A DNA stretch of 64,000 nt from Callorhinchus milii (lineage: Eukaryota), in assembly GCF_018977255.1 (NCBI RefSeq), contig NW_024704753.1:620001-684000 (forward strand), given 5' to 3'. Position 1 is the first letter of the stretch, and each line of letters begins with the position of its first letter. The notes under the pieces are model-generated. The model had not been told where the DNA came from, did no database searches, and saw only the letters and a list, made by a program, of their open reading frames with translations. A program made the position numbers and the translations under genes. This document shows, piece by piece, positions 7,707 to 62,974 of the stretch.

Positions 7707-7743
7707 ATGGCCAAGTCCAAGAACCACACCACCCACAACCAGT
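7707..7743 (+). CDS. RPL29: RPL29 coding exon 1 ([12 protein letters not shown])
   Basis: Acceptor ttccag at 7703, ATG 7707, donor gtgagt at 7744. Confidence 0.96.
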
Positions 7744-10329
7744 GTGAGTCTCCCTCTCAGCCCCGGCGGCAGCTCTCCGGGCCCCGGGCCCCGGGCTCGG
7801 GCCTGTGCCCTGTGCCCTGTGCGCTCGCGCCCTCCAGACGTCTCCAAAGCGCTTTCGCGGGGACACCCCGGAAAGTGTAGTGACTGTGCATTTCCCCCCC
7901 GGGCGGGGCCGGGCCGGTGGTCCCGGTGCTGGGGCTGCCCTGAGGGGTGTGGGGGGGGGACGTGCGGCCTCGCTCCGCTCCTCTCCCCTCCCCTCCCGGT
8001 ACCGTCGGGAGCTGCTCGAGCGCCTCCTATCAAATCTCCCCTCAGCCCTTCTCCCGCTCTCTTCGGGTGAACGATCTCATCCTCTTCAGTCTCCACGTCA
8101 TCGTAGCCTCTCATCTCTCACGGTCCCGTTTCTGGTCCATCTTCTCCGCACCTTCTCCAAGGCCCCCGGTACCCTTCTCCCGACTCGGGCACAGTTACTC
8201 CTCCTCCTAAACCAGCGCTTTGTGTAATATTATAAGAGTGATCTTTGCATTCGATACGGCGCCCGATCACGTCTTCGAGACGTCTCAAAGCGCTTCGCAG
8301 GGCAGACTGTAAAGTGTGTTGACTGTGTGTTTTGTGGGCCAAACACGGCGGCCAATTGCACACAGCAGCGTCCCCACAAACAGCCGTGGGTTGAAGTGAC
8401 CAATTTATTATCTTTGTTTTTTCTTGGCGGCTTATTATCAGGCGCGTGGAGTAAGGAAACTTGCCCATGCTGTGGCCCTGCCGGGGGTCAAACCCAGGTC
8501 TTTCACTCGCAAGGCGAGGGCTCTAACCACTGAGTTACAGAACATAACTTCCTCGCTCTTATAATCTGTGCCTCTATTTATAAAACCCACGGATCCCATG
8601 TGCTTTTTTAACCGCTTTGTCAATTTCTCCTGCCACCTTCAAAGCTTGACTGGAGCCTGCATTCGAAAGTGATTGTGGCATTACCTGTGGCCTGGTCATT
8701 GATGCTGCAGGCAGAGTATTGTAAATGTTTCCCCGTGTTTATGGGGGTGTCTGTCTCCCATTGAGCCTTGTAATGTTTCCACATGCCGTCGCTCGCTGCT
8801 GTTTATGTGAATTTAGTTATTTGCACGCTTCTAACCTGTGTCGTTTACACCCCAGCTCGTAAGTGGCACAGAAATGGGATCAAGAAACCCAAGACAGAGA
8901 GATACGAGCCTCTGACTGGGGTGAGTACAGAGTCGCTGCAGAGGTGGAAGAGAGCTCGAGCCATCACAGTACAGTTTACATTTATATATGCTTTCGCATT
9001 GGAATACTTCCAAAGGGCTTAGGTAACAGGGCACGGACACGACAGGAAAAGGGCAGGGAATGGGGTTAGAGTAGAGAGCTCCAGTGGGGGAGCGAGTCCC
9101 AGCATAGACACGATGGGGAGAGAGAGAGAGAGAGAGCAGGGAATGGGATGAGTGGCGAGTTCAGGTTCTGAGTCCGAGCTGAAGGCCGATGCTGAACTTG
9201 TTTCTGTGGGTAAATGCTTGCTGGAGCCTGCATTCGAAAGTGATTGTGGCTCTGTCTGTGGCCTGGTCATTGATGCTGCAGGCAGATTATCGCAAATGTT
9301 TCCCCGTGTTTATGGGGGTGTCTGTCTCCCATTGAACCTTGTAATGTTTCCACATGCCGTCTCTCGCTGCTCCTTTGTGAAGTCTGTTTAATGAGGCGAG
9401 AAGATTGCAGCTTCTCTGGCGGCCACTCTACATCTGTTACCTTTGGATTTGCTTAAACTGTTTTTTGTTCAGCCGAATGTCTTGACAGTTGCGGAAACCC
9501 GTCCTCAGTTTGATTATTGAACGTAAACTGAGAATTCCATGCATCCCACCTACACGTGGAAACTCCAGAGATAAATTGGTAGAATGGAATGCCAGTTAGG
9601 ACCACACTGGTTGTTAGAGCTGTGGCTTGCAGGGTTAACTGGAGCTGAGTGGGATGACTCCTTGCTCCCAGTTACCTGTAAAAAAGTTTCCTTGCACTTG
9701 CCATGTTTCTACAGCTCATGTTGCTGGGCTCTGTTGGTGACACGCTTCCACTTTCGGCTGTCATCAGCAATGCCCTGGAATACTGCAGACGCTCCTGACT
9801 CAGGAACTGGACGAGAGACCGTCACAGAGGACAGGCTCGATTCTGACATTCCATTGCCAAACATGTCACCTTGGGGCCAGTTTAGCACCACCAGCCCCCG
9901 CCCCACCCTTCAAGGAGTTGTCACTATGGTTAAATAGTTGTAAATTATTTTCCAGTTTGTTTATAGATAATTTCATTTATTTTCCGTTTCCCCTTACCTG
10001 CCTGCCTCTGATAGTGACTTTGTGAACTCTCACTCCCATTCCCTGCTCTCTCTCTCTCTCCCCTTCGTGCCTGTGCCGGTGCTCGCCCCCCCCCACTGGA
10101 GCTCTTTACTCTAACCCTGCTCTCACTCTCTCTCACCCCATTATCTCTGCTCAAAATGCATGAGGTCCAATCTGTATGTGGTCAGATTTGTTTGCAGTGG
10201 ATCTTGCTAACTTTCGCTTTTGCTCTCTCTCAGGTGGACCCCAAATTCCTGAGGAACATGCGATTCTCTAAGAAACACAACAAACGAGGGAAGAAGGCGG
10301 TCGCTGCACAGAAGAGTGTGAAGGGCTGA
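7707..10329 (+). CDS. RPL29: 60S ribosomal protein L29 (eL29), 65 aa; join(7707-7743,8856-8920,10234-10329)
   Basis: Spliced translation [65 protein letters not shown]; canonical eL29 N-terminus; all introns GT-AG with matching phases; AATAAA at 10426-10431. Confidence 0.97.
8240..8540 (-). mobile_element. Older SINE copy (RPL29 intron)
   Basis: Degenerate tRNA head at the right end, L2-type tail at the left. Further copies at about 25045-25400, 32515-32850, 37260-37580, 39560-39820, 42085-42307, 43185-43450 and 50150-50445. Confidence 0.85.
8655..8786 (+). ncRNA. SNORA71: H/ACA box snoRNA, SNORA71 (U71)-like, copy 1 (RPL29 intron)
   Basis: cctgcattcgaaagtgat...ctggtcattgatgctgcagg hairpin, H box AGAGTA 8713-8718, ttccccgtgttt second hairpin, ACA 8781-8783 about 70 nt before the 3' splice site; matches my recollection of U71 sequence. 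Confidence 0.85.
8856..8920 (+). CDS. RPL29: RPL29 coding exon 2 ([12 protein letters not shown]...LTG)
   Basis: ccccag acceptor, gtgagt donor at 8921, phase 1 to 0. Confidence 0.96.
9226..9357 (+). ncRNA. SNORA71: H/ACA box snoRNA, SNORA71 (U71)-like, copy 2 (RPL29 intron)
   Basis: Near-identical paralog of 8655-8786; H box AGATTA 9284-9289, ACA 9352-9354. Confidence 0.85.
10234..10329 (+). CDS. RPL29: RPL29 last coding exon ([11 protein letters not shown]...KG*)
   Basis: Polypyrimidine tract plus cag acceptor; TGA at 10327-10329. Confidence 0.96.
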   Translation: [31 protein letters not shown]

Positions 10330-11254
10330 ACCCGTGAGCTGTGACACTCACTATCCTGGGGCGGGGAGCAGGGTGTGGGGGGGGGGGGGGGGTAATGTCC
10401 ATATCATGTTATGATAAGTTTGTTAAATAAAAAAAAATTATCCTTGCACTTGCCATGTCTCCGCGGCTCATGTTGCTGGTCTCGGTTGGTGACCCTTTGG
10501 ACTTGGGGTTCGAGCCCCACATCGGAGCTTTACGCCGAGTCTCGGCTGATGCAGAGTCGTTGGGGAACCGAGATGCTGTTCTTCAGATCATGTGTTAAAC
10601 TGAGCTCCTGGTGATGGCTGCTCAGGCAGACATTAAAAGTTCCTGTCGTGCTATTCAGAAAGAGGAGGGAGTTTCTCTCCTGGTGTCCTGGCCAACAATC
10701 CCCCAAATAACGTTGGTGATTTATTTACTGTGCAATTGGCTGCTGCATTTTGGCTACAAAATAAACAGTCAATTCACTTTAAAGTACATTCTGAAGCACT
10801 TTGAGATTTATCGAAGACATGAAAAGGCGCTGTATCAAATGCAAGAATTATTATTATTTATTTACTTCCCGGCTGCTATTGGGACATTGCTGTGTGAAGG
10901 TGGATCCTGTATACATCCACAACATAATAATAATTACACCTGATAAATAATATAATAATAGTAGTCCTTATATCTGAGACAGCGCATTTCACAGCGGGAG
11001 AATGTCACAGGGTTTACCGTAAATGTAGAGTGACGGTTCTCACCTTTTGGGGATCCAGCAACAGGACTTTATCTACAGTTATGGATTGGTCAGTCCAGAG
11101 AACTGGCTCATACTAACAGTGCTACTGCTTACCCTGACCCCTCATTAACACAAAACTCCAGTAGTACTTATTTCATGTCAAATAACTTCGGTTTTATATC
11201 ATGCACATACTTCAGCACACAGTATAAGGTAAAAGTGCAAGTCTTCAAAACTCT

Positions 11255-12110
11255 CCCATCACCAGTAGCTCCTCCCCATCACCAGTAGCTCCTTTCCCAT
11301 CACCAGTAGCTCCTCCCCATCACCAGTAGCTCCTCCCCATCACCAGTAGCTCCTTCCCAATCACCAGTAGCTCCACCCCATCACCAGTAGCTCCTTCCCC
11401 ATCACCAGTAGCTCCACCCCATCACCAGTAGCTCCTTCTCCATCACCAGTAGCTCCTCCCCATCACCAGTAGCTCCTCCCCATCACCAGTAGCTCCTCCC
11501 CATCACCAGTAGCTCCTTCCCCATCACCAGTAGCTCCTCCCCATCACCAGTAGCTCCTTCCCCATCACCAGTAGCTCCACCCCATCACCAGTAGCTCCTC
11601 CCCATCACCAGTAGCTCCTTCCCAATCACCAGTAGCTCCACCCATCACCAGTTGCTCCTTCCCCATCACCAGTAGCTCCACCCCATCACCAGTAGCTCCT
11701 TCTCCATCACCAGTAGCTCCTCCCCATCACCAGTAGCTCCTCCCCATCACCAGTAGCTCCTCCCCATCACCAGTAGCTCCTTCCCCATCACCAGTAGCTC
11801 CCCCATCACCAGTAGCTCCTTCCCCATCACCAGTAGCTCCTTCCCCATCACCAGTAGCTCCACCCCATCACCAGTAGCTCCACCCCATCACCAGTAGCTC
11901 CTCCCCATCACCAGTAGCTCCTCCCCATCACTAGCAGCTCCTCCCCATCACCAGTAGCTCCTCCCCATCACCAGTAGCTCCTCCCCATCACCAGTAGCTC
12001 CTTCCCCATCACCAGTAGCTCCTCCCCATCACTAGCAGCTCCTCCCCATCACCAGTAGCTCCACCCCATCACCAGTAGCTCCTCCCCATCACTAGTAGCT
12101 CCGCCCCATC
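11255..12110 (+). repeat. 20/21-bp minisatellite
   Basis: ccccatcaccagtagctcct(t), about 40 copies. Confidence 0.95.
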
Positions 12111-13412: not shown

Positions 13413-16400
13413 CACCACCCCTCCCCCATGCTCAGGCCCCGCAGCTGACTGTTCAGGGCTTTGGGACGTCCTCCCGACGTGAAAGGCGCTCTATAAATGT
13501 AATTTTGCTGTTGTCTGACACACAGGCACAGTCACAACACCTCACAGTAAATGCTGAGGAAGTACTTTGAGGTGTCCTCCAGATGTCCTGCTCGCTGTAG
13601 ACCACAGATCGCTTGTCCCCAGGGAGCTGTATAGGGTTGTCCTCACCACAGGCACTGCTCCATATACCAACCCAGCATGTTCACTGAACTCCAGCTTATG
13701 TGTGTGTGTGTGTGTTTGTTGCGTGTGAGAGGAGGAAGGGGTTCTGCCTGCACCAGATAATGACAGCAATAGAGAGATGTATATGGAGACGGAGAGGCAG
13801 AGATATGTGGTGCTGTATCTACAATGGGGGCAGGTCCCATTCCATGTGGTTATGAGGCTGAGCGTGAGGCTTGTGTGCAAGTCAGGACGGGTTGACGATG
13901 GAGCAGGGAAGTGGGGGGTGGAGAGTAACAGCCCTGAGGGAGTTGGTCATGTTTGTACCTGTTTGTTTTTCGACCAATAAATTGCGAAACAATGGGAAGC
14001 TTTAAGCTGTGTGCCAGAGGCTCCTGCCAGGCAGGAGGGACGACTATGAGATGGGGCGGCAGTAAATGCTGATTCTATTGAGGTTGTTTCTCACAGGGAC
14101 TGGTTATAATCATTAGGTTATATCCTTATCACACCTTCCGAGACGTCTCAAGGCGCTTCACAGGGTACTCTGTACAGTGACTGTGTGTTTTTGTTAGCCA
14201 GAGAGCTAAGGAAGGTGAGAGGATCTCACGGTTTTCAGTTGGGGATTTCCAGTGATTTGTCTGTCTGTCTCTCTCTCTCTCCTCCACCCAAAACCACCAG
14301 CAGATGTTCTGTTGCAAAACAACAGTTTCGTTTCTCTGATTTGATGTCACTGGCCTCAGTTCCTTTGGTTTTGTTTTCTGACAGGAAACTAGATGCTGCA
14401 CAGCTAATGGCCCTGGGCTTGGGGGGGCCTCACCGCCAGGGGGATATTGAGGGCAGAACAGAACTCAAGCAGTGTTGATATTAGTAACATTACATTCTGT
14501 TCCAAATTAATGATTATTGCTGCTCATTCACAGACTGTAAGCCTTCCAACAACACTTGTTCAGACACATGTGTGGGGGGGTGGGCGATGTCACAGAGCAC
14601 TTTACAGAGACGGGAGTGGGAGTCCGAGTGGGAAAGGGGAGGATGCGGGCGGGGTGGAGGTTGGCAAGGAGGGAGGGGAACGCAGGGCGAGGAGGGAGAT
14701 GAGGCACAGATGGATGTGTGCGAGTGAGCACTCTATCCTCTTAGTCAGATTGCGGGTGTAAGCCCCACATGGGGACTTTGTGCTCACGAACCAGGTCTGG
14801 GTTTCACATCGCATTCAAAGAGCAGCATCTCTGACAATGCAGTGCTCTCTCTCCCCACAATCTGTGCCGGGGGAGGAGAGGCAGAGAGAGAGAGCTGCTT
14901 TGTCAGAGATACTGCTCTTTGGATGCGATGTGAAACCCAGGCCCAATCTGTGCGCTGTACAGGTGGACGTTAAAGATCCTGTGGGTTATTGGGGAAGAGA
15001 AGGGAATTTCTCTCTCTCTCTCCCAGCGTTCTGCCCAACAATCACCCGATACAATTACTCAGTCACTTCATTGGCTGTTTGCAGGATATTGCTGTATGCA
15101 AATTGGCTGCCGACGTTGCCTACAAAATACAAAAGTGTATGTAACTGGGTGTGTCTGTGAGGTGTTAATCTAGAGTGAGTAAGTGTGTATGTGTCTAACT
15201 GAGCCAGTGTGTGTAGCTGCCTGTATCTGTGAGTGTCAGTGCGTATAAGGAGGCCATTCAGTCCCTCGAGCCTGTTCTGCCATTCTGATAGATCATGGCT
15301 GATCTGTACCTCAACTTCAACTATCCGCCCTTTTCCCCATATCCCTTGATACCCTGACCTAACAAACATCTGGCCACTTTAGTCTTGAAGACGTAAATGG
15401 ATCCGGCATCCTTAGCCTTTTGGGGGAGAAAGTTCCAAATTCCCTCTACTCTTTGGGTGAAAAACTACCTCCTGATTTTATTCCCAAATGGCCTATCTCT
15501 AGTTTTAAGATGATGCCCCCTTGTTCTGGATACCCCCGGCACCCGAGGAAATAGTTTCTCTGAAGCTACCTAATCAAATCCGTTTAAAAACGTCAACTAG
15601 GTGTTTCAGTGTGTATGTGTTTGTGTGTATGAGTTGATAATGTAGGTTGCGGCCAGTTATATTGCCACTTCCTGCAGAACTTAGTAAAGCCACAGAATGT
15701 CATAATCTTGAGCAGGTTCCTCTACAGTCTGGCTTCTAGTGAAAGTGTCTGAGCTGCTGCTGACAGTCTGGGTACCCTCACAGTATCCCGCTCTATCTCC
15801 CCATCGTGTCTGTGCTGGGGATCGCTCCCCCACTGGAGCTCTCTGAAGCGCTCCACTCTAACCCCATTCCCTGCTCTCTCTCTCCCCATCGTGTCTGTGT
15901 CAGACTCAGGGACGTGGGGGTGGGGGTGGAGGAGGTATGAAGCTGTGTGTGTAACTTCAGAGAGGTTTACAAAATGCTGGAGTTGTTCAGGCTATAATTA
16001 GGGAGTAGGTTGCCAGTGATGTTCTGACGCTAATTTGCTCAGGAGAACATAATGAATTAAATCCAAACGACAGCAAGTGAGGAGACTGAGTGCATTCCGG
16101 CTCGCAGTCCAGGCTAACGCAACGCTGGTGGAAGTGCGCTGTTATTGCAGGCCGGATCTCAGCGCGTGGCTTCCGTGTCAGAAACCGGACACGACAAATG
16201 GGCTGAAAGATTAACATTTATCACACGACTGAGACCATCGGTGACCGCGGGCAGAAAAGCGTCTCGTCCACACGCCAAGTACATGCAGCGTCTCAATCGC
16301 AAGCCAAACACATGCTATCAGGTAATTACTCCCCCCATCTGGAGGTTTCCCTTTCATGATCACATTCCCGTTCCCGTGGCTGTCTGGACGTGGCCTCCTC

Positions 16401-16507
16401 CTCCAGCCCGGAAAATCCCGGAGAGAATCAGCGGCTCCTAAACCCTCATCGGATTGTTGCTGTGTGGTCAGAGCGGGGGGGCGAGCCGGGCCGGGCTGAC
16501 GGAGGAC

Positions 16508-16575
16508 TCACATGTAGGCGGTGTCCGGGCTCTTCCCGGGATAGAGCTGGGGATTAGCCACAGGCTTCCCGGGTT
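16508..16575 (-). CDS. Shisa5-like paralog last coding exon
   Basis: ctcgttgcaacag acceptor; [22 protein letters not shown] in frame. Confidence 0.7.
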
Positions 16576-19500
16576 CTGTTGCAACGAGATAGAGAAGCAC
16601 AGCCGGGGGTTAGCGTTAGCCCCTGAACCACACCAACACCCACTGCGCACGTTGACACCACACGCGACGGCTCTCATGCAGCGCGACAATCAATCACACG
16701 TTTACATTCCCGTGTAATGGGGCCCGGTCCGGGGATGGGAGACCGGCTACTCACGTGTGAGGTTGTCCTGATCCTGGTACGGTGGTGGCTGTGGGTTAGC
16801 CTGGCTGGCGTAGGCCTGGGTGTAGGGCCCGGGGTGGGGATATTGGCCAGGGCTGAACTGTGCAGGGGGCAAGTATGTGGGCACAGGCTGGTAGATGTGG
16901 TTAGCCATGCCCCCGATCGGCACCTGTCCTTGGTATGGCACCATAGTGGTCACAACAGCTAAGAGACAGGAAAGAAGATCAGCACCAACCACTGCCCTGC
17001 CCCAACACCAACCATGCCCACTGCCCTGCCCACCCACTGCCCCCTCCCCCCAACACCAACCACGCCCGCTGCCCTGCCCCAACACCAACCACGCCCACTG
17101 CCCTGCCCCAACACCAACCATGCCCACTGCCCTGCCCACCCACTGCCCCCTGCCCCCAACACCAACCACGCCCACTGCCCTGCCCCAACACCAACCACGC
17201 CCACTGCCCTGCCCCAACACCAACCACGCCCACTGCCCTGCCCACCCACTGCCCCCTGCCCCCAACACCAACCACGCCCACTGCCCTGCCCCAACACCAA
17301 CTACGGCCACTTCCCCGCCCACCCACTGCCCCCTGCCCCCAACACCAACCACGCCCACTGCCCCACCCCACATTGTCCCACGCCCGCCACTAACCACACC
17401 CACTATCCTGCTCTCAACACTGCCCTCGCCCACCACCCCTCCCCCAAAACTCACCCTGCTGCAACACTGCTCCACCCCCCAGACTGCCCTGCCCACCCCC
17501 AAACACTGGCCCCGCCCATCACCCTGCCTCCAATCCCCCCCCCTCCCACCTGAGACTGAAGGGTGACTTACTGGTGGGAGGGGGGGGATCTTTGCAGACT
17601 GCATTGCAGCAACAACAGCAACAGGAAATGACTGCACCCACGGCCAAGGCCACCAGCAACACCAATCCCACCCATATCAGGACGGTGATTCTGGACACAG
17701 AGAGAGACAGAGATAGAGGGAGAGATCAGAGTCACGCAGAGGAGGGGGAAAGACAGAGTGAGCGAGGGATGGATGGAGGGACAGAGTAAGGGAGGGAGGG
17801 ATGGATGGAGGGATGGAGTAAGGGAGTAACAGAGGGAATGAGGGAGGGACAGAGTGAGCGAGTGACGGAGGGAGTGATTGAGGAAATGACGGAGCAAGTG
17901 ATGGAAGGAGGCAGTGACAGACAGATAGACAGACAGAGTGACGAGGTACTCACATGGGACTCCTCTCCTCGCAGTAAGCCCCAGACCAGCTAAAGCTGCA
18001 GAAGATATCTGCCAACACTGTCCATGTGGAAAGAGACAGATGAATGAGATGGACTGAAGTCAGCACACATTCCCCATCCAAACATCACAGCGTGTAGTGT
18101 AGTGACTGTGTGTCATCAGGCAGTGTGGAGGGGGGGTGGGCACAGACTGTCCTCCCCCATCCCCCTGCACCCTAAACTCTCTGTGGAAAATATTGCACTT
18201 CCTCTCCCCTCTCTGCTCACTGTCTGAACTAGTCCTGTGGCTCAGTGGTTAGAGCGCTTGCCTTGCAAGTGAGAGACCTGGGTTCAATTCCAGGCAGAGG
18301 GCGAAACCTTGGGCAAGTTTCCTTACTCCACACAGAGCCTAATAATAATCCCTCCAAAACCAAACAATAATAAATTGGTCATTTTCAATCAATTGGCTGC
18401 TGGTTTCGCCCACAAATATACAGTCAATTCACTTTACAGTCTATTCTGTGAAGCGCTTTGGACGTCGAGAAGACGTGAAGAGCACTATATCAAATGCAAG
18501 GGTTATTATTACTATAGTCATTGACTCACCAACCAGTGAGAAGCCTTCCTCCACACTGAATCCATTAAAGTACCCTCACCCACCACCATCTCCTCGTCCC
18601 CGACCCACGACCAGCCCCCTCCTCGTTTCCAGCCCGGATCCGAGTCAGACTTTCACAGCCATTTCTCCCCACCCACATCCTCACACAGTGCTCTCCCCCC
18701 CAACATATAAAGTGTGGGGCAAATCCCAACCAGCCCTTGGTGTTCCCCAGTGATCATTTCAAAATTCCCCACCAGTAAATTGCGCTTCCATAATAATAAT
18801 AATAATCTTTGCATTCGATACAGCACATTCTCACGATAAACTGTAAAGTGAATTCACTGTACATTTTGTGGGGGAAATATATTTTTTTGTATATTTTGTG
18901 GCCAAAATAATAATAATAATAAAGGTAATGGCGATTTTACAGTATAATCTGTGAAGTGCTTTGAGACGTCTTGAAGATGTGATATCCGTGATATCAAATG
19001 CAAGGATTAATGTTATTGTATGATTATTGCTTACAAACTATTTCCACTAGTGGGTGGGTCGGTCACCCGAGGACACCGATTCAAAATGGTTGTTAAAAGT
19101 AACAGAGTGGAGGTGAGGAGAATTCTTTTCACACAACAAAACAACAACAACAAAATTTATGGAGCGCCTTTCACGTCGGGAGGTCGTCCCCAAAGCGCTC
19201 TAAGGGAGAAGTAGATGGGTTTTTGGGGAGGACAGATTGCAGGGCTGTGGGGAGAGCGTGGGGGAATGGGATTCATTTCATCGAATCATACACCACAGAA
19301 AGAGGCTATTCGGCCCATCGTATCTCCCCCAACTCCGAAAAGAGCAATCCAACTCAATCCCACCGGCCCGCTTTCTCTCCATAGCCCTACAATCCTGTCC
19401 TCCCCAAAAAGCCATCTACTTCTCTCTTAAAAGTTGTTATTGAATCGGCTTCCACCACCCTTTCAGGTAATGCATTCCAGATCCCAACAGCTCGCTGGTG

Positions 19501-20281
19501 AAAACATTTTTCCTAACCTCCCCTCTGTTTCTATTAACAATTAACTTAAATCGGTGTCCTCGGGTTACCTTCCCACAGGTCAGTGGAAACAGTTTTTCCC
19601 GGTTCAACCTATCAAATCCTCTCATGATCTCGAAAACCTCTAGAAATCTGTGTTTAATGTGTTTATGGTAGCAATAATCCTCGCATTTGATACCGCGCCT
19701 CATCACGTCTTCGAGGCGGCTCAAAGCGCTTCACAGAATATATTGTAAAGTGAATTGACTGTATATCTTGTGAGCAAAACGTGGCAGCCAATTGCGCACA
19801 GCAGCGTCCCACAAACAGTCGTGTATTCCGTGACCAAATTATCATTATCATCATTTTTTAAAAAAAATTTAAGGGATGACTACCCCCGGAAAGTGATTCT
19901 ACAATCGACTGACAACTGGGTTCCTGCTCGGTTAACAGAGGTGTTTCTGGATAAAAGTGGGATAAAATTGCCCCTTTGAGTTCAGCCACCACCAGTGACT
20001 ATTCCTAACAAAATCCACCCCTCACCACTACACTCACCCATCTTCACTCTCCCCACCCCCACTCCCCCACCACACACACTCTCTCCCTCAAAAAACACCC
20101 CTCATTCCCTTCCCCTCCCTTTTCTCTCTGCTCCCCCCAAAAAAAATCCATCACTGTGTTGACCCTTTCAGTCTGTGCCAGGCAGACGCAACTCCTGTGA
20201 CTGACAAAAGTGCAGATAAGTTTCCAGCATGGACTCACCAGTGGGTAGGAGCACAGCCCCGAGAACCAGGCACCTCGCCAT
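16508..20281 (-). CDS. Shisa5-like type I membrane protein with minimal ectodomain, 165 aa; complement join(20239-20281,17954-18017,17572-17690,16755-16958,16508-16575)
   Basis: Five GT-AG exons splice in frame (498 nt): signal peptide [17 protein letters not shown], short ectodomain [49 protein letters not shown] cluster, VVTT plus Pro/Tyr/Gln tail with PPPY, ending TAYM*. The TM exon is 119 nt, phase 2 to 1, the same as in the neighbouring SHISA5. Confidence 0.8.
16755..16958 (-). CDS. Shisa5-like paralog exon 4 (proline-rich, PPPY)
   Basis: tctcttag acceptor; gtgagt donor; [10 protein letters not shown]...[12 protein letters not shown]. Confidence 0.85.
16988..17368 (+). repeat. Intronic minisatellite (cccactgccctgccccaacaccaaccacg)
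   Basis: Tandem 29-bp-based units inside the Shisa5-like paralog intron; explains the long spurious ORFs here. Confidence 0.9.
17572..17690 (-). CDS. Shisa5-like paralog exon 3 (TM plus Cys cluster)
   Basis: ctgtgtccag acceptor; gtaagt donor; 119 nt. Confidence 0.85.
17954..18017 (-). CDS. Shisa5-like paralog exon 2 (two-Cys ectodomain)
   Basis: tctctttccacatggacag acceptor; gtgagt donor; 64 nt, phase 1 to 2. Confidence 0.75.
18231..18515 (+). mobile_element. Same SINE family, internally deleted copy
   Basis: Same head and tail as 13086-13412. Confidence 0.88.
20239..20281 (-). CDS. Shisa5-like paralog exon 1 (signal peptide)
   Basis: gagATGG start context; donor gtgagt; phase 1. Confidence 0.7.
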
Positions 20282-20994
20282 CTCCTCACTCACAGCTCTG
20301 CAAACTCCAGACAAGAGTTGGTTAAGTTTTGTGCAGATCTCAGCCCTTCCCGTCAGTCAGCAAGTCAGCCTTGGTCCACAGCCTAACCCTGCTCTGGAGA
20401 CTGAGAGAGAGAGAGAGAGGGATGGGGGTGAATCCCAAGAAACAGTCAAGTAAGTGCAGAAAGAGAGAGAGAGGAGAGGGAGGAAGGAAGAGAAAGAGAT
20501 TGGCTTTACAGTCAGTTAGGTCCTTGGCTCAGACACACACACACACATACACACCACAGAACAATGTAAAGTCACAGAGAACACGCTGTATGTTTAGAGT
20601 CCCAGCACAGTGCCCTCCAATGCTTCCTGCTGAATATAACAGCCAATAAATCTTATCTGTTAGTGCTGTAATGGTCTGTGCTGCCACAAACCCAGAGCTG
20701 CGCTATCTCACTTAGAATTCAGGGGCGATGATGCACAGCTAATGGTTGAGTCGTCTCAAAGCCCTTCACAGGATTTTACTGTAAAGTACAGCAACTGTGT
20801 TTAACGGTCTAACATCTCATCCCAATAATGTAGTGTCAGCCTAGACTGTGTGAGTTCGAAGGGGTTAGACTGAGGAGAGCGAGGCGAGAGTGGGTTAGAG
20901 TTATAATAATAATCCTTGCATTTGATACAATGCCTTATCACATCTTCGAGACGTCTCAAAGCGCTTCACAGAATATACTGTAAAGCAACACCAC

Positions 20995-21700
20995 CCAAGG
21001 ATGCCCACTCCACCTCACTGAGCCAGTCCAGAACCTTGGCGACTTGTTTGACCCTCAACTATCCTTTCTACCCCACATCTGCCTTGACTCGCTCTGCCTT
21101 CCCTCACCTCCGCAACATCGCCCGGCTCTGCCACTGTCTCACACCGGAGACCCCCGAGACCCTCACACACGCATTCATAACATCCAGGCTTGACTACGCA
21201 AACTCCCTGCTTGTCGGCCTCCCCAACTCCTTGCTCCATAGGCTCCAGGTCATTCCGAACTCTGCAGCCCGTGTCCTCTCCTGCACCAGGCTCCGCGGCC
21301 CTATCACCCCCATCCTCGCCTGACTCCACTGGCTTCCCTTCACACAGAAGATACAGTTCTAAATCCTGGTCCTCACCTTCAAAGCCCTCCATGGCCTCGC
21401 CGCCCCCACCCCACCTGTGTGATCTCCTAATCCCCTACCAATCTTTCCGCTCCTTCCACTTTGCGGGCTCCGGCCTGCTTCATGTCCCCTGTCTCGCTCG
21501 CCCCACCATTGGGGGCGAGCCTTTGGGCACTCTGCCCCCACTCTTTGGCACTCCATCCCGCAGTACCTCCACCTCACCCCCTCCCTTACCTCCTCCAAAA
21601 CCCATCTCAAGACCCTCCTTCGGGTCTGAAACACTGACTGTCCAACAACTTGCGTCCTCCCAACATGAAAGGCACTTTACAAATATAATTTGTTTTTTGC
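20995..21700 (+). mobile_element. L2-clade LINE 3' fragment
   Basis: HLRNIARL...ETLTHAFITSRLDYANSLLVGLP...RLQ..NSAARV; further L2 ends at about 2095-2565, 12600-13515, 25885-26230 (-), 39290-39555 (-), 45195-45390 and 54490-54690. Confidence 0.88.
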
Positions 21701-24184
21701 TGTAAAGTGAATTGACTTTATATTTTGTGGGCGAAACATGACAGCCAATTGCTCACAGCAGCGTCCCACAAACAGCCGTGGATTGAGTCAGCAAATTTTT
21801 TTTGAGAGATTATTACGCCCGGAAAAGCCACCCAACAATCGACTAACAAGCGGGTTCCTAGTTACTGCTGATAGTGCGTGCGTGTGGAGTAACAAAACTT
21901 GCCTAAGGTTTTGTTTGTCCTGAGCAGGAAAGTTTGTGGCTGTCAGTGGCTATTGAGGTCGGGACAGCAGAAACCTTCGGAAGGTAAGTGGCCGAGTATG
22001 AGAAACCATTAAGGGTGTGTGTGCAGAAAGACAGAGAGACAGGGGGAGGCTGTGGAGGGAGATGGTGGGGTGGGAGGGTGGGTGGCCGGGGGGGGAGTTC
22101 TGTACAGAGAGAATTTCCATTATTCGATGGTTTCTCATACCTCTTCCATTTCCCTTTAGAATCACTGTGTTGACCCGACCTGAATAGCCACTGACAGCCA
22201 CAGGAGGGCAGGGGGAGCGAGGCGAGGGGGAGCGAGGTGTGGTGTCTACACGTATGTAGAGCACACAGGATGGGTCATGCAAATGTGTGCACATATTATG
22301 GTTTGTCCGGAAGCAACACCCCTTCACCCCTCTGCCCCCCGCCTCCCGTCACAGGGGGCTGGTCTGCCTGTCATGTCCTGTGACAGGATGCTAATGTTGT
22401 TTCTTTCTGTCACAGGATTGCTGTATTGAGATCTGTGTAAATCTATTTTCTGCCTGTAAATAAATATTATATATTTTGTTTGTAAAAATGTAATTAAAAG
22501 GCCGTGCGCGGGGAAGCAGGAGGGAGTTTATAAAAGGATTCAGAAACTCTTTAACAACTTTTGTTGAGTTTCTAATGGCCATCCTCCACCTACACCATAG
22601 TCAGGTCTGTAGTCCATCTTGGTCACAATCCACCATTCTCCGCAGGAGGGGCAGGATGTCCCTGGCTGTGCCAGGTATCTGCTGTGAGATTGCGTTACTT
22701 ACCTTACGATCCTATTTGATCCTGGTTCCCCTCTCCTTGCGCGGTCTTTGACCTTGCTTATGATCACCTTCTGCCTCCCCTCTGGCTCAGTATCAGGCTG
22801 TTAAGTGCTGTGAGACATTCTGAGGGAGTGAGGGATGGGGGTGAGGGGATGGGTTTGAGAGAGGGGTATATGAGGGAGAAGGAGGGGTCTATGGGGGTGA
22901 GTGAGGGGGGGTATGGGGTTGAGGGAGGGGGTATGGGGGTGAGGGAGGGGGTATGGGGGTGAGGGAGGGGGGTATGGGGGTGTAAGTGCGATGCGGAGGG
23001 AACGGACAAACATTCCTGAGTTTGAAAGAATGAACGAAGCTTTGACAAAAGGGTCTGCATTTATTTACTGGAGACGGGAATCGCTATGAGAGACAGAGCC
23101 ACAGCTTGGAGCACATCACACTCAGTTCCCCACCCCGTCCCACCCCCAAACCCCCCCCGGCAGCGAAGCTTCAAGCTACAGGGAAGGGCGAATAGGAGGT
23201 GCAGGTCTATACATAACCCTTGGGGAGGGGGAGGCTGAGTTAGACAGCATCAGTCTGTATGTTGCTCTCTCTCTCTGCATAGTTCCACAGGAAAGAACAC
23301 ATATCCAGCACCTTATAAAATGGCAACACAGGCAGGACGGCTGGCGGGGGGGGGGGCGGGGGGGGGGGCACAGTCTAAATGTGAATCAATCTGACTGTGG
23401 ATACTGTGAACAAGGCATATTGTAGTGTGTGAGAAAAAAAGACTGTGAGCGAGAGGCACTATGTGAGAGTGTATGTGAGAGAGGATGTCGTGTGCAGAGA
23501 ATGCCGGAGATTTGAGTATCAGATTGTAATCGAATGTGTGAGTGAGAGAGATGAGAGTGAGTGTGACAGAATAGGAGTGTGAGAGTGAATAGTGAAAAAG
23601 AGAATGTGTGCGAGACTGAGACAGCCACTGTGAGAGTGTGAGACAGTGTGTGAGCGAGATAGTGTGTTTGTGAAGGTGAGAATGTGTGAGTCAGAGAGAT
23701 GAGACAATGTGAGTGTACATCAGAGAGTGTGTGTATGAGAGTGAATGTGAGAGAAAAAGAGAGAGAGAGAGATTTTCCACTGACCAGGAGTGAAGGAGAG
23801 TGAGTGAGCGAAGGAGGGAGGCGGTGAGGCATTAACCTTCACAGAAGGGGAAAAACTCTCGATCGGAAACCTCCGAAACACCCGGTGAAAGTCAAGACAT
23901 TAAAAGTACAAAATTTTCTCTCCCCACAAAAGTGCTGGAGCTCCCGGTAACCGGGAAGGGGATCAGGAACAGCCTCGCCCCGTCCTGTTCGCAGTTCCTC
24001 AAACACAGCAGCACTCTCCCCGCAGGGAACTCCCTCAATCACCCACAGACACAGGAAAACATCCTATAAAAAAAATCCCGTAAAAACCATCCGGTAAAAA
24101 GGAATTGAAAGTTCCCTGCCGGATCGTCAGAGGCTGGACCGTTTACAGGCGTCTCTCGGGACAGCACGGGAGGCTGGACAGCAA

Positions 24185-24366
24185 CTACTGCGATGGTGGT
24201 GCGTAGGCAGGATTGTACGCTGGTTGAACCCCGGGGTTGTAGACAGCCGGAGCAGATGGATTATATGGAGCTGGAGCAGAGGGGCTGTAGGAAGCGGGGG
24301 CAGCTGGGTTGTAGACAGGAGCACTGTAGGGAGGGTTTGCCCCGGGGTACGGAGCATTGGAGCCGA
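24185..24366 (-). CDS. SHISA5: SHISA5 last coding exon
   Basis: ttcctcctcacag acceptor; ends [10 protein letters not shown]; candidate AATAAA on the minus strand at 23060-23065. Confidence 0.9.
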
Positions 24367-27300
24367 CTGTGAGGAGGAAAGAAATGTCAGGAAGAAGGTT
24401 TGTGATGACAACAACAACAACTTGCATTTACACAGCGCCTTGCACCCCGGGTGGCGTCCTGGAGCGCTTAGAGGACTGTAAACAGAAGTCACTGGGAACG
24501 CTCAGCAGGTCAGACAGCATCCATGGAGAGACAACGTTTTGGGTCCACAACCCTTCGTCAGAATGGTAGTTAGGGTTAGGGATAGGGATAGGGTTAGGGA
24601 TAGGGTTAGGGATAGGGTTAGGGCACTGGATCAAATGCAAGGTAATTCCGGTGAAGGGTCGTGGACCCGAAACGTTGGCTCTCCATGGATGCTGCCTGAC
24701 CTGCTGAGCGTTCCCAGCGACTTCTGTTTTTGTTTTCGTATTTCCAGCGTCTGCAGTATTTTGTGTTTTACTTTAGACAACTGTAATTCCCCTCTTCCCC
24801 CGGCTGCGAACCTTGTGTTCCCCCCATCCGCCCGCTCACCCACCCGCGTTCTGACCCCCACCCCTCCCCACCCCCCACCCGTGCAGTGATTGCTGGTGAG
24901 AGGCTCGAGCGCTGCTTCAATCTGGAAGTGTCGTTAAAAGGGACCTCAAGGGGAGAGAGGAATGTGAGGCTGCAATACCAGGGCGGGCCAGCGGGGGGCG
25001 CCGCTACCCTACCCCCAGCTCCAGCCTCTGTGTGACTAAGAGTAATAATCTTTGCATTTGTTCCAGTGCCTCAGCACAACATCGACAGACACCGCAAACC
25101 GCTTCACAGGATATACTGTAAAGGGAATTTACTGGATATTTTGTAGGCAAAACGGGGCAGCCAATCGCACACAGCAGTATCCCACAAACAGCCGTGGATT
25201 GAGTGACCGTGTTATTATTATTATTTTTTGGAGGGATTATTACCACCGGAAAGCGATCTGCCAATCGACTAACAAATGGTTTCCTCTTTATTGCTCGGTA
25301 AACAGAGGCGTGTGGAGTAAGGAACCTTGACTAAGGTTTCGCCCTGCCCAGGAATCGAACCCGGGTCCTCTCGCTAGCGAGGCGAGCCCTCTAACCAATA
25401 TGATACAGGACAGTAACCCTCCGTGTGTGTGTGTGTGAACCTACGCGTGTGTGTGAGACCCTCTGTGTGCGTGTGTGACCCTGTGTGCGTCTGTGTGTGT
25501 ATGACCCTCTGTGTGTGAGATACTCACTTGCCACGGTGTCCTGGTATGAGGGGGGCTGAGCAGAGTAAGGGGTGGGGTAAGGAGGGGGGTAAGGGGCCCC
25601 TGTGGGGTAAGGCATGGCGCCCGGCGGGGGCTGGGCGGGAGCGGGGGCATAGCCCTGGTACCCGCTGTACCCGTGGGGCGGTTGCTGTGGATAAGCCATT
25701 GGCTGCACTACAGTGGTGGTGGTGGAACTGGTCACAATGGCTGGAAGAGAAGCAGAGAATAACTGGTTAGTGGTCAAACTACCCCAAGCTCTCCTCGCTG
25801 ACCTATCTCCATCATGCTAACCACACGCTAACTAGCCTCACGTTAACCTGCCTCACTTACACTAAGCAGCGTCTAACAATAATAACAACACATTATATTT
25901 AAACGGCGCCTTTCATGTCGGGAGGACGTCCCAAGCCACTGGACAGTTAGGGATTTGGACCCGAGTGGAGGTTGGGATTGGGAGGGTGGAGGGCAGGGAG
26001 TGGGTTAGGATGGTAACCGAAGACACGGTCGAAGAGGAGGGTCTTGAGACGCGTCTTGAAGAGGCGAGGGAGGGGGCGAGGCGGAGGGACTGTGGGATGG
26101 AGTTCCAGAGATTGGGGGTGGAGCAGGCCGCCGCCTGCTGAGCAGAAGGAGCGGACAGGTCAATATGATCACAGAGGTAGGGAGGAGCAAGGCCGTGGAG
26201 GGCTCTGAAGGCGAGTAACCAGCGTGTAATGGGTGTGCCCTCTGCACAGAGCACAGAGAGCTGAGGGTATTAATGACAAGGCTGAAGTCTCCATGTGCAG
26301 ATGATTAGAGGGAGCCCAGGAGCCGCTGACTAGAGCGTCGCCTCTGCTCTGTGCCTCTGGCTGTGTATGAAACAGGAGGTTCTCAGTGTAATTACAGCAG
26401 GAAAGGATCGCCTATTTTTATCCCTCATCAGGAGCTAAAGGGCAGTGTCAGACCTGGTCACTGGCCTCACTCAGTCTCTGGGTTAGGAGGATAGCGGGTT
26501 CAAGCCCCTCCAAGGCAAGACGCAGAGTGCACAGGCCAGACCCACGCTCCAACACGGAGCTGGGGGTGGGAGCTGGGGGGAGGGGTGAGCGCCACATTTC
26601 CGGAGACGCCATCCTTCGGATGAGACTGTGCCCTGTTCAGGGTGTCCGGCTGGACGGTAAAGATCCCGCAGGGCTGTTGGGAACTGCTTGGTGTCCTGGC
26701 CAACAACCCTCCCCCCCACCACCCCAGACAGCAATCACCCTGTTCACTTCTTCACTTCACGGCTGTTTGTGGGGACATTGCTGTGAGCAAACTGCTGGTG
26801 CGACAGCCAACGAAACACACTACACTTGACAGCGACAGGGTGTGGAACACTGCAAGTGGCTTTGTGGTGACGGCCGGATGTGAAATGGCTTTTGATTGTC
26901 TACACTGACAGCAGTTGGCTGTCTGGGCTCCTCTCTCAGTGTCAGACTGAGCCGACAAAGAGCACCAGCCCCCCCCGCCCATCGTCTCACAATGTGGTTT
27001 GTGTCAATGCAAAGCCCCCCCACACCCACCTGCCCCCAAACACCCTCCCGCCACTCCCCCCTGACCTCACCCACACAACAGAGTAGCTGTTCTCTCGCTG
27101 TCTGCAGTGTTTCCTCCATATTCTACACAAACCTCAACATGGCTGAGCTTGTGAGCTCTGCTCAGCCTCACCTTCAATAATTATATTAACGGTCCTGGCG
27201 TTTGACCCGGCGCCTGATCACGCTGTTGAGACGTCTCAAAGCGCTTCACAGGATTTACTATAAAGTGTAGTGACTGTGTATTTCGTGGCAACACCAATTG

Positions 27301-28695
27301 GGTACAACAGTCGTGGATTGAGAGATCAAATTATTATTTGTGAGGATTATTGCCCCCGGAAAACACAGTCACTCCACTGTACAGTGTATTCTGTGAAGCG
27401 CTTTGACCCATCTCAATGACGTGATACAGCGCTGTGTGAAATGCAAGCATTATTATTACTATCTCTCCCTCGCCTCCCCCCCCCCCGGTCTCTCTCGCTC
27501 TCGCCTCCATGCAAGTCTCTCGCCATAAGGTGGGGGCGGTGGAGGACTCGTGCTAACTCAGACTCTGCCGCGGGGGGGGGGGGGGGCGAGAGGGGGGTCT
27601 TGTTGGCCGGGGGGGAGGGGGGGGTGTCACTCACGTTGCCGGCTCCGCCGTGCGATCTTGTAGAGGATGCAGCACGGGCAGCACAGACACAACACCACAG
27701 CTGTCACGAAGATCACAAAGAAGCTCACACCAATGGCCACGAAGGAGCTGAAACTGGAAGAGATCAAAGAGGTCACGGTGGGGAGGTTGTGTGGAACGGA
27801 GATCACTGTCGGGGGGGGGGAGGGGGGGAGAGAGGTCACCGTGGGGCAGAGAGAGAGGTCACTGTGGGGGGAGGTGACCGGACGGAGGTGGGGGGGGGTT
27901 TGGGGGAGAGGTCACGGGTGTTTGTGTGTCTAACACTGACTGTGTGGCGCTCAGCTCCCACCCTCTAACCCGTCGCTGGTTCTTCTTTAGAGAACATGTC
28001 TACTTTGGGCGTTTCCCAGCTGTGCCGAGCCTCAGGGGGGGAGTTTGAAGCCGGAGAACTTTTGAAGTGTAATGTGTGCACTTAGTTAATCAAGAACCAG
28101 AAATCTGTGAGCGTATATGTTTGCGTGTCTGTGTGTAAGAGTGTATGTGTGTTTGCGTGCGTGTGTTTGAGTGCATGTGTGGGGAGGCACTCTTTCCCAG
28201 GATTAAAGCATGTCACGTGACGATCTTCCACGCCATCCTTTGCCCGAGTAGACAATGAACAGACGACCCCTCCCCACCCGAACACACACACACCCTCCCC
28301 CCACTGAGAGTTTCCCAATAACTCAGTTAACGCAAATATTGAACAAACACACAGACACACGCACGCACGCACACACAGACAGAGACACAAGACAGAGACA
28401 CACACACGCACAGAGACACACACACAGAGACACACACAGAGAGACACAAGACAGAGACACAGAGACAGAGACACACACACACAGAGACACAAGACAGAGA
28501 CACAAGACAAACGAGACACACACACACACACACAGACACACACACAGAGACAGTAGCCTGTGGGTCCATGTTTACTGCTGACAGACACAGGGCTCGGCAC
28601 AGTGTGAGCTGTGTAACCACCTGGTCACTAAGTGGCAGCTCCCCTGGGGGGGGGTGAGCAGCAGCAGAGAGGGTAACAGCTTACCCGTCACTCAT
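24185..28695 (-). CDS. SHISA5: Protein shisa-5 (scotin), short form; complement join(28685-28695,27635-27753,25528-25740,24185-24366)
   Basis: TM followed by [12 protein letters not shown], then [12 protein letters not shown]...YQGY...YPPPYP...PPSYQDTVA and terminal YNPAY, all characteristic of SHISA5; GT-AG introns in phase. The first mini-exon (MSDG) is the least certain part. Confidence 0.85.
24480..24770. mobile_element. Penelope-like inverted-repeat (pLTR) remnant with hammerhead-like cores, enclosing telomeric repeats
   Basis: 85-nt inverted arms 24480-24564 and 24645-24729 (8 mismatches); each inner end carries a degenerate CTGANGA-stem-GAAAC motif. Confidence 0.7.
25528..25740 (-). 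CDS. SHISA5: SHISA5 proline-rich exon
   Basis: ttctcttccag acceptor; gtgagt donor; 213 nt, phase 1 to 1; PPPY and PPSY motifs. Confidence 0.92.
27635..27753 (-). CDS. SHISA5: SHISA5 TM/Cys exon
   Basis: ctcttccag acceptor; gtgagt donor; 119 nt. Confidence 0.9.
28685..28695 (-). CDS. SHISA5: SHISA5 putative first coding mini-exon (ATG AGT GAC GG)
   Basis: aggATGA followed by gg|gtaagc donor; phase 2 matches the TM exon, giving [12 protein letters not shown]. Confidence 0.55.
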
Positions 28696-30777
28696 CCTGA
28701 GTCCAAGGCACCGACCGACCGACCGACCAGAGCTTTGTAGATCTTACACTAAACTCTCAGCTCCAGCCATCGCCCACACAAAACCCACCCCCAGCACTCA
28801 GCCAGGGACTGCTCACAGCCCTGCTCCGCACCACACAGCCCCTCACAAGCACAAACACACCAGCGAGCACTCCCCCCGGTACGTACACAGCCCAGTGATT
28901 GTGCTGCCTGTGGGTAGCGCCGGGGTTAAAGCCTGCCGTTCAGGCTTGTCAGTGCTTGTGACGGGCTGGAGCCAACGCCTGTTCCTGTGTGAGAGCTCTG
29001 GGCGATTGCCAGTTCCAGACACTCACTTCCTCCCCGGCTCGTGTTTATATCAATGAGGAGAGGAAGTTACACACACAGCTTCATACCTCCTCCACCCCCA
29101 CCCCACGTCACTGAGTCTGACACAGACACGATGAGGAGCGAGAGAGCAGGGAATGGGGTGAGAGTAGAGAGCTCCAGTGGGGGAAGCGAACACCAGCACA
29201 GACACGATGGGGAGAGAGAGAGAGAGAGCAGGGAATGGGGTTAGAGTAGAGAGCTCCAGTGGGGGAAGCGAGCCCCAACACAGACACGATGGGGAGAGAG
29301 AGAGAGCAGGGAGTGGGGTTAGAGTAGAGAGCTCCAGTGGGGGAGCGAGCCCCAGCACAGACACGATGGGGAAAGAGAGAGAGTGGGGTTAGAGTAGAGA
29401 GCTCCAGTGGGGGAGTGAGCCCCAGCACAGACACGATGGGGAGAGAGAGAGCAGGGAATGGGAAGGGCAGGGAAAGGGGACTGAAATAATTGGTCTTGAG
29501 AGGGCGGCGCAGACATGATGGTCCAAAGGCTGTGCTGTTCATTTCCATGTTTCCAACCAAAACCCTACTTCCTTCTTAACGTCCCGTTCCTTCCTGTTTA
29601 TGGTAATAAAGTCTCGGGGCAACGGGGAGCTGGCAGTGTTAGCAGACCCCAGGTCAAGCCTGGTCACTTTCCCTCTGACTGATCCATTGTGAGTGGCTGG
29701 TAAATGGATAGAGGAAGGAGCAGGAGGTGGTGGGGTGGCTGTGGGGAAGCGCTAAGCTACATCAAGATGGTCACGGACACCAGAATATGCCAGGCCTGGC
29801 CCAGCACAGGGAAACCCTGAGAGATGCCATCTCACACCTCACTCACACAGCAATGTGAGCCCGCTCTCCAGTCAGTGTCAGGGTGGCGCCATGCCCTGTG
29901 CCCTGGCTCCGTGCTGGGGCTGGTGCTGTGGGGGGTGGTGTGGGGGGGGTGGGGCTCAGTCTGCTTCTCCCTCCAGTCACAAAGGGTGGGGAGAGGCGCT
30001 AGCCAGGCCCGCTGCAAACACACAGCCCCCACTCCCACCCCAAACCCATGCCAGTCACTCACTCGGGCTCCAAACCAGAGTGGTAAACATCAGCTAAGGT
30101 TCCCCTCATGAGTGTGAGTGTGTGTGTGCATGTGTTTGTGGGGGCGGGTCAGTGCGTGTGTGTGTGTGCATGTGTTTGGGGGCACACACCCCACCCTACA
30201 ATATTTGAATAGTTGATTTACAACTAGACTTCCTTTACTGATTAAGTACATTCCCTTCTCAGATCAAGCAGCACATGAATGCCATTCTCCGAACATTGTG
30301 TTCTGATGAAAATATTACTTTGCCACAAAAGGGGAAGAGATAACTCCCTCCCCCCCCCGCAGCTCAGAACACAACACACAGAAGACACAAGGTGTGGTCA
30401 ATTCTGCTTAAAAACTACACTGCTAAGAACACTACAATTTAGAACCAAATAAATAAACAAAACGAGGGCAGATGAAGCACACACACGCACGCACGCACAC
30501 ACAATCTTCTTTTATGAGCAAGACCTTCACAATCGTTTGATGACGTGGGACACAGTCAAACAAGGAAGAACCTTTGGAAGCCGAATGGAACCGGAGAAAG
30601 ATTAAGAACACGTAATCATGAACTCAGGGCACATCATTGGAAGACTCGGGAGAAAAGTTACTGTACAAGAAACAGATCCTGAAATGTTTGGTCACAAGTG
30701 GCTTTTGAAGTCAGGAGCAGAGCTTTTCAGAGGGAATGGAGCAAGTCTGGTACAGAGGGAGTGCAGGGAACCCCATT

Positions 30778-31573
30778 GGGGTGGGGGGGGAGCACAGGGG
30801 TGGGGGGAGCACAGGGGGGGAGCACAGGGGTGGGGGAGCACAGGGGGGGAGCACAGGGGGGAGCACAGGGGTGGGGGGGAGCACAGGGGGGGAGCACAGG
30901 GGGGGAGAACAGGGGTGGGGGGGGAGCACAGGGGTGGGGGAGCACAGGGGTGGGGGGAGCACAGGGGTGGGGGGGAGCACAGGGGTGGGGGGAGCACAGG
31001 GGTGGGGGGAGCACAGGGGTGGGGGGAGCACAGGGGTGGGGGGGGCACAGGGGGGGGGGGGGGGGGGGGAGCACAGGGGGGGGGGGAGCACAGGGGGGGG
31101 GGGGAGCAGGGGGGGGGGGGAAGCACAGGGGGGGGGGGGACAGGGGGGGGGGGAGCACAGGGGGGGGGGGAGCACAGGGGGGGGGGGAGCACAGGGGGGG
31201 GGGGAAGCACAGGGGGGGGGGAGCACAGGGGTGGGGGGAGCACAGGGGGGGGAGCACAGGGGGGGGGAGCACAGGGGGGGGGAGCACAGGGGGGGGGAGC
31301 ACAGGGGGGGGAGCACAGGGGGGGGGGAGCACAGGGGGGGGGGAGCACAGGGGGGGGGGAGAAGCACAGGGGGGGGAGCACAGGGGGGGGGAGCACAGGG
31401 GGGGGGGAGCACAGGGGGGGGGAGCACAGGGGGGGGGGAGCACAGGGGGGGGGGAGCACAGGGGGGGGGAGCACAGGGGGGGGGAGCACAGGGGGGGGGG
31501 AGCACAGGGGGGGGGAGCACAGGGGGGGGGAGCAAGGGGGGGGAGCACAGGGGGGGGAGCACAGGGGGGGGGA
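30778..31573 (+). repeat. G-rich minisatellite (Gn-AGCACA-Gn) abutting an assembly gap at 31574-31598
   Basis: gagcaca cores separated by long G runs. Confidence 0.92.
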
Positions 31574-62917: not shown

Positions 62918-62974
62918 GTACGGTGCTGACCCCCACCCCCACCCCTCTACTGTCCCCCACCCCCACCCCTCTAC

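Follow-up and report, generated by a model that had tools for sequence, protein, structure and literature searches.

Proteins of the Shisa/STMC6 family are defined by an N-terminal six-Cys core (C*C*CC*CC), with eight Cys in Shisa (PMC5578492), and the role of this Cys-rich domain is poorly understood. A locus in the elephant shark Callorhinchus milii raises the question of what such a protein can still be when nearly all of that domain is gone. In a 64,000-nucleotide (nt) stretch of RefSeq contig NW_024704753.1 (positions 620,001 to 684,000; hereafter the window), a first-pass annotation made from sequence alone had described a "mini-Shisa" gene, a SHISA5 paralogue with two cysteines in its ectodomain. 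Our favoured answer, held with moderate confidence, is that the gene is a spliced gene present across the chondrichthyan class, likely a tandem SHISA5 duplicate without the Cys-rich core, and that its product is likely a palmitoylated endolysosomal adaptor recruiting NEDD4-family ligases via a PPxY motif.

The mini-Shisa gene is a genuine spliced gene. As initially described, five exons (Table 1) join into an uninterrupted open reading frame (ORF) of 165 codons plus TGA, with PPPY at residues 133-136 and AYM at the terminus; all exon ends fit the AG acceptor/GT donor rule and the phases are 1/2/1/1. We compared positions 15400-35399 with contigs of four public runs, of which X2, X3 and X8, from three studies, are RNA-like and X11 is DNA-like (the RNA label is a software guess). 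The joints 16575/16755, 16958/17572 and 18017/20239 were present in 3/3 RNA-like runs and 0/1 DNA-like run, and the X11 contigs pass straight through the introns. The fourth joint, 17690/17954, which adjoins a skipped repeat, was missing among the joints listed; it is consistent with record 20 of X8, in which exon 1 stops at 369 and exon 3 begins at 434, leaving between them 64 letters, the length of exon 2. This spacing argues for a main transcript without an additional exon, and the presence of joint 18017/20239 in all three RNA-like runs bears out the expectation that no extra Cys-rich exon lies between 18018 and 20238 in that transcript. Because contigs lose rare variants, a minor isoform could escape detection. 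A search of intron 1 and the rest of the window found no Cys-rich exon; a possible match at 23370 was spurious and falls in the 3′ untranslated region (UTR) of the neighbouring SHISA5-like gene. The 5′ UTR of the mini-Shisa gene reaches at least 20392, with an in-frame stop upstream of the ATG and G at −3 and +4, and RNA-like contigs of its 3′ UTR reach down to 16051; neither AATAAA nor ATTAAA was found in the stretches scanned. Coding variation comprised a synonymous change at A52 and S111G. An upstream ATG at 20548 on the reverse strand, in the probable 5′ UTR, is in frame and followed by a stop before the main ATG, forming a short upstream ORF.

How widely is this gene shared? A phmmer search of 1.84 billion representative proteins (E up to 0.001) returned five matches: the query protein, two batoid proteins, one mucin repeat and one unnamed partial protein. 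A profile search in which the best 8000 candidates were scored gave 14 matches, 12 of them named and every named one chondrichthyan, and a word-index search with the single elephant shark protein recovered only the query itself. Matches and cluster members together place homologues in 13 further named species, comprising nine sharks (Heptranchias perlo, Pristiophorus japonicus, Stegostoma tigrinum, Chiloscyllium plagiosum, C. punctatum, Hemiscyllium ocellatum, Carcharodon carcharias, Cetorhinus maximus and Scyliorhinus torazame) and four rays and skates (Mobula birostris, M. hypostoma, Leucoraja erinacea and Rhinoraja longicauda). We dropped the Folsomia mucin repeats (P0002/P0006-8) as a repeat artefact and P0005 (127 residues, E 1.2e-5, unnamed), whose similarity is limited to the transmembrane segment and Cys run. 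One locus was found in each species other than Rhinoraja longicauda, which has at least nine copies on one contig (LOC numbers 144601581-585, 588 and 590-592). These copies (rows P0028, P0029, P0031, P0032, P0036-P0039 and P0041) show ectodomain insertions and variable Cys runs, two lack PPxY, and in P0036 the luminal segment is duplicated and the tail truncated. No bony-vertebrate match appeared in these searches; since canonical SHISA5 proteins likewise failed to surface, a diverged bony-vertebrate orthologue is possible. In a tree of 24 rows with one outgroup and without P0036, the galeomorph sharks, the skates and the eight tested Rhinoraja copies each group together (100/99); the branches of the elephant shark protein and of the neighbouring SHISA5-like gene are long and the base does not resolve.

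The conservation pattern indicates that the small ectodomain is more than debris. All counts refer to 24 proteins, omitting isoforms P0009-12 and P0040 and the near-identical skate rows P0015-24. Exactly two cysteines (C-x8-C) lie between the loop start and the transmembrane segment in 24/24, in agreement with the two-cysteine ectodomain originally noticed, and C-x5-G-x2-C, the pattern that served to locate the loop, is likewise found in 24/24. The second Cys stands 8 residues ahead of the transmembrane segment in 20/24, the remaining four being Rhinoraja copies with insertions. PPxY occurs in 22/24 proteins (15/15 outside the Rhinoraja expansion), YxPxP in 22/24 and NPx[FY] in 23/24, and 3-8 Cys fall within the transmembrane and juxtamembrane part of every protein but the truncated P0036. 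Half of the proteins (12/24), from sharks and Mobula, carry an NNTT-type N-glycosylation sequon directly ahead of the transmembrane segment, probably too close to the membrane for use; it is absent from elephant shark and skates. Pairwise identity among eight elasmobranchs is 0.42 for the signal peptide, 0.62 for the ectodomain, 0.64 for the transmembrane segment and 0.45-0.48 for the tail. When the 18 ectodomain residues of the elephant shark protein were shuffled, its score against the elasmobranch profile fell from 91.5 to a mean of 68.6, and 0 of 1000 shuffles matched the real score. Because ectodomain identity exceeds that of signal peptide and tail and shuffling costs about 23 bits, the loop is under selection rather than a decaying remnant. 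The class-wide invariance of C-x8-C, the Gly, the Cys run and PPxY supports purifying selection at the protein level, as judged from these alignments.

Hydropathy and the AlphaFold helices at 3-16 and 35-63 concur in predicting a signal peptide and a single transmembrane helix of type I topology. For two members, AlphaFold predicts, at low confidence, a helix, a two-strand hairpin across the Cys pair, the transmembrane helix and a disordered tail. Whole-protein Pfam scans gave no match over the cut-off, including none to Shisa_N or CYYR1, a PDB sequence search gave a single weak transmembrane match (E 0.38), and Foldseek with the low-confidence model gave no match under E 7. Sub-threshold Pfam matches to p10 FAST, coronavirus E and Comm are transmembrane-level noise. 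The Orthoreovirus p10 FAST fusogen (PF07204) reached 14.1 bits against a cut-off of 21.4 in P0014, over the transmembrane region only, with a best E of 0.0058 among four near-identical skate rows. FAST fusogens of the p10 type carry a polybasic juxtamembrane stretch; these proteins have only 0-3 basic residues past the transmembrane segment.

The likely parent is the adjacent SHISA5-like gene, which we named from its likeness to the mouse and chicken Shisa5 rows of PMC7653359 (supplement file 5), resembled by its transmembrane start. Its transmembrane exon is 119 nt long with phases 2 to 1, the same as mini-Shisa exon 3 and as the first-pass annotation had pointed out, and the tail exons of both genes are 1 to 1. 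A collinear alignment of the elasmobranch profile to the transmembrane and tail exons of the neighbour scores 53.6 bits and takes in the QGYxPxP and QPPSYQ segments, and the maximum of 1000 region-wise shuffles was 4.6 bits; the proposed SHISA5 paralogy is thereby upheld. For the neighbour itself, no Cys-rich or signal-peptide exon was found in the window, and its apparent first exon contributes four residues before the transmembrane segment through joint 27753/28685, which is inferred and missing among the joints listed. In all three RNA-like runs the neighbour's contigs stop exactly at 27753, a hint of a second upstream exon, perhaps within the N gap 31574-31598.

The first-pass annotation had also recognized in exon 2 the F.WS...C end of the Shisa domain. 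The aligned rows verify eight luminal Cys for human SHISA5, with FVWSEERC containing the final one, and place the first Cys of zebrafish Shisa5 four residues past the LA signal end and the last about 8 before the transmembrane segment (PMC7653359, supplement file 5); however, F.WS is not conserved in the mini-Shisa orthologues, which keep only a hydrophobic-x-aromatic spacing before the second Cys plus the invariant Gly. The positions of both mini-Shisa cysteines relative to signal-peptide end and transmembrane segment match those of zebrafish Shisa5 and Shisa4, as would be expected if the outermost two of the eight Shisa Cys were kept and the six-Cys core was lost. Human SHISA5 exon 2 is 157 nt long with phases 1 to 2; relative to it, the 64-nt exon would have lost 31 codons in frame. 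Chimaeras and elasmobranchs split 421 million years ago (PMC3692497). We infer one duplication and in-frame collapse before that split, with the first and last Shisa Cys retained, and the mini-Shisa gene is likely an old tandem duplicate of SHISA5.

What might the protein do? The signal peptide would be cleaved near A17, the C21-C30 pair would form a small closed hairpin that lies some 8 residues off the membrane, and the cytosolic Cys cluster would be S-acylated. Endosomal sorting may proceed via YQPV (Yxx-hydrophobic) and, in elasmobranchs, DNPxF. The PPxY motif would engage WW domains of WWP1/2, ITCH or NEDD4, leading to ubiquitination and lysosomal delivery of the ligase itself or of a membrane client bound through the transmembrane/hairpin region. 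An acylated endolysosomal ligase adaptor without the apoptotic domain of SHISA5 is our best guess because the transmembrane segment, the Cys cluster, the Yxx-hydrophobic motif and one PPxY are kept. In CYYR1, PPxY binding of WWP1, WWP2 and ITCH takes place at late endosomes and promotes lysosomal loss of WWP1, and binding dropped strongly only after deletion of two of its three PPxY motifs (PMC11399591). The transmembrane and proline-rich part of SCOTIN (SHISA5) mediates NS5A binding, transport to autolysosomes and degradation (PMC4754343).

Several observations weigh against this adaptor and its proposed descent. The elephant shark protein has a single PPxY versus three in CYYR1, and a lone PPxY may bind weakly; it is also the only member without the NPxF motif, and tail lysines are few (0-3) and not conserved. 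The AlphaFold models are weak (mean predicted local distance difference test score 56 and 51, predicted template modelling score 0.25 and 0.19, hairpin about 50-60). Ten residues are insufficient to prove homology of the loop to the Shisa domain, and Shisa4, whose last Cys is also near the transmembrane segment, is a possible relative too. The only outgroup is long-branched and was placed without support, so that a single origin rests on parsimony, and in the Atlas ranking CYYR1-like mollusc clusters stand slightly over shisa-5 (0.89 vs 0.86; 0.92 vs 0.91).

Other accounts start from the same data. The luminal exon may be new or borrowed, for example an EGF-loop fragment, and may have been fused to a short SHISA5 copy in which the Cys-rich domain was never present. 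We consider this origin unlikely, even though the RNA-supported transcript of the neighbour is devoid of the domain, the window yielded no such exon, and ten residues cannot establish homology. The loop does fit C-x2-G-aromatic-x-G-x2-C, a pattern of the EGF C-loop, in 15/24 proteins, a likeness that is a pattern count only, the database searches having used whole proteins rather than the ectodomain alone. Exons encoding EGF domains usually have phases 1 to 1. Mini-Shisa exon 2 instead has phases 1 to 2, and its end lies five residues and a split codon past the last Cys, as in human SHISA5 exon 2; both Cys are spaced from cleavage site and transmembrane segment as in Shisa4/5. We also observed that the EGF-like loop is often preceded by D-[IV]-E, another motif of EGF repeats, possibly by convergence. 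The same loop likeness would suit a surface receptor or co-receptor that engages a partner outside the cell or in the lumen via its conserved hairpin and whose PPxY mainly governs its own turnover. In favour of this, only the transmembrane segment, Cys run and PPxY are better conserved than the ectodomain, and the Cys domain of CKAMP44 is required to modulate its target (PMC6470934). However, an 18-residue loop 8 residues off the bilayer offers little surface, whole-protein Pfam and PDB searches gave no EGF or other family match, and some Rhinoraja copies carry 12- to 60-residue insertions behind the loop, which makes such a receptor improbable.

Two further possibilities concern the relation to SHISA5 function. 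A SCOTIN-like innate-immune restriction factor would route viral membrane proteins to lysosomes, a special case of the adaptor mechanism in which the skate expansion reflects a host-pathogen race. SCOTIN is interferon-inducible and works via its transmembrane segment and tail (PMC4754343), the Rhinoraja loci are clustered and the eight tested are monophyletic, and the p-distance among them is 0.21 in the ectodomain vs 0.10 in the tail and 0.02 in the signal peptide. Yet the juxtamembrane p-distance is even higher (0.32), so that relaxed constraint could suffice, a single locus per species was found outside Rhinoraja, and GAAANNGAAA sites, resembling the interferon-stimulated response element, number 0 in 20239-22300 and 5 across the whole window; we judge this role quite unlikely. 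Still less credible is a modulator of the parent that has no pro-apoptotic luminal domain and either co-assembles with SHISA5, using its proline-rich tail, or competes for ALG-2. SCOTIN tethering of endoplasmic reticulum and endosomes requires the proline-rich tail (PMC10398665), its apoptotic activity resides in the Cys-rich domain while ALG-2 binds PXY/PYP repeats (PMC2691584), and the same three RNA-like runs cover both genes; but identity to the neighbour is low, and mini-Shisa has 2 PXY and 0 PYP versus 6 and 4 in the neighbour. We retain the PPxY adaptor as our working interpretation.

The RefSeq counterpart of the gene is LOC103188787 (XP_007907085.1/XP_007907086.1, 165 residues, "protein shisa-5-like"), with exon 4 a 100% match to the 165-residue protein. 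The gene order of the window, with names we presume from the translations, is RPL29, mini-Shisa, SHISA5-like, ALAS1 and an SLC6 transporter. Tandem repeat arrays occur at 11260-12100 (units of about 20 nt, downstream of RPL29) and at 16980-17390, inside intron 3 of the mini-Shisa gene.

Table 1. Coordinates of the mini-Shisa gene and of other features in the window.
Feature	Position	Strand	Basis
Mini-Shisa exon 1, coding part: ATG at 20281 and most of predicted signal peptide	20239..20281, 43 nt	-	splice sites, contigs
Mini-Shisa exon 2, phase 1 to 2: signal peptide end and entire ~18-residue luminal part	17954..18017, 64 nt	-	splice sites, contigs
C21-x8-C30 loop with invariant G27; predicted beta-hairpin, low confidence	17971..18000	-	homologue comparison, AlphaFold
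Mini-Shisa exon 3, phase 2 to 1: transmembrane helix, Cys run C59-C64 (17606-17623), C68	17572..17690, 119 nt	-	splice sites, contigs, AlphaFold
Mini-Shisa exon 4, phase 1 to 1: Pro/Tyr/Gln-rich tail, conserved YQPVP, PPPY (16777-16788)	16755..16958, 204 nt	-	splice sites, contigs, homologues
Mini-Shisa exon 5, coding part including TGA	16508..16575, 68 nt	-	splice sites, contigs
Adjacent SHISA5-like gene, likely parent	24185..28695 (region 23360-28987)	-	translations, contigs, profile
SHISA5-like neighbour exons	28685-28695 (ATG; contig to 28987), 27635-27753 (119 nt), 25528-25740 (213 nt), 24185-24366	-	
RPL29-like exons	7707-10330 (~7.7-10.3 kb)	+	translation; name presumed
ALAS1-like exons	36350-44000 (coding from 36.35 kb)	+	translation; name presumed
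SLC6 transporter-like exons	62700-62920	+	translation; name presumed

The first-pass annotation had suggested an undescribed, lineage-specific protein. The gene is already in RefSeq and is common to holocephalans, sharks and batoids, although its anatomy was not found in print. In the mostly open literature searched, no paper named LOC103188787 or "shisa-5-like", none of those listed for shisa and shark treated the gene by title, and in a survey of zebrafish Shisa genes the elephant shark comes up for shisa-1 alone (PMC10531659); the gene is annotated, but its anatomy appears undescribed. It represents an ancient subfamily of chondrichthyans in which a minimal cystine loop is conserved, and domain loss has precedents in TMEM207 and short SHISA5 forms. 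This natural and long-conserved deletion of the core leads to two predictions, namely that the first and last Shisa Cys pair together and that the transmembrane segment and tail carry adaptor function. The automatic label "shisa-5-like" is misleading across shark genomes, and the mini-Shisa reading corrects it and flags the skate tandem expansion. A bolder version, which we regard as doubtful, is an undescribed Shisa subfamily of cartilaginous fishes more than 400 million years old, in which the eight-Cys domain was pared to a single functional cystine hairpin. This hairpin would pick out membrane clients, perhaps viral or immune ones, to be cleared by lysosomes in a ubiquitin-dependent manner; in one skate the subfamily would be both amplified and diversifying, and in elephant shark the parent SHISA5 may also lack the canonical domain.

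Compared with known proteins, mini-Shisa is no new kind of system. It shares with SHISA5/SCOTIN, of the Shisa4/5 class, a predicted signal peptide, one predicted transmembrane segment, a juxtamembrane Cys cluster and a Pro/Tyr tail with PPxY, as well as collinear homology to the adjacent gene and the length and phases of the transmembrane exon; it differs in its size (160-188 residues), two luminal Cys rather than eight, no long linker and fewer PXY/PYP repeats. The STMC6 adaptors CYYR1 and WBP1L have the topology predicted here, and we take as our working model the way they recruit NEDD4-family ligases through PPxY at endosomes (PMC11399591), but they retain a six-Cys domain and several PPxY. 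Two cysteines likewise rule out an EGF-like domain, with its six Cys and three disulfides, and whole-protein searches gave no EGF match. TMEM207 is also a small single-pass, STMC6-related PPxY protein without the canonical Cys-rich domain, although it is described as VOPP1-like with a membrane-adjoining WY/WF/IW motif (PMC6125347), missing in mini-Shisa; Pfam scans, phmmer and profile searches of mini-Shisa proteins gave no TMEM207 or WBP-1 match. Short SHISA5 forms, namely the chicken Shisa5 row (PMC7653359, supplement 5) a 173-residue Atlas cluster and probably also the neighbour's transcript, consist of transmembrane segment and tail only. They begin just before the transmembrane segment, lack both signal peptide and loop, and represent variants of SHISA5 itself, whereas mini-Shisa is a separate gene with a conserved loop. 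Measured against the family definition, the protein has a proline-rich cytosolic tail with a PY motif, and homology and exon phases tie it to the SHISA5 lineage; because the six-Cys core and any Shisa_N match are lacking, we file it as SHISA5-derived rather than as a canonical Shisa.

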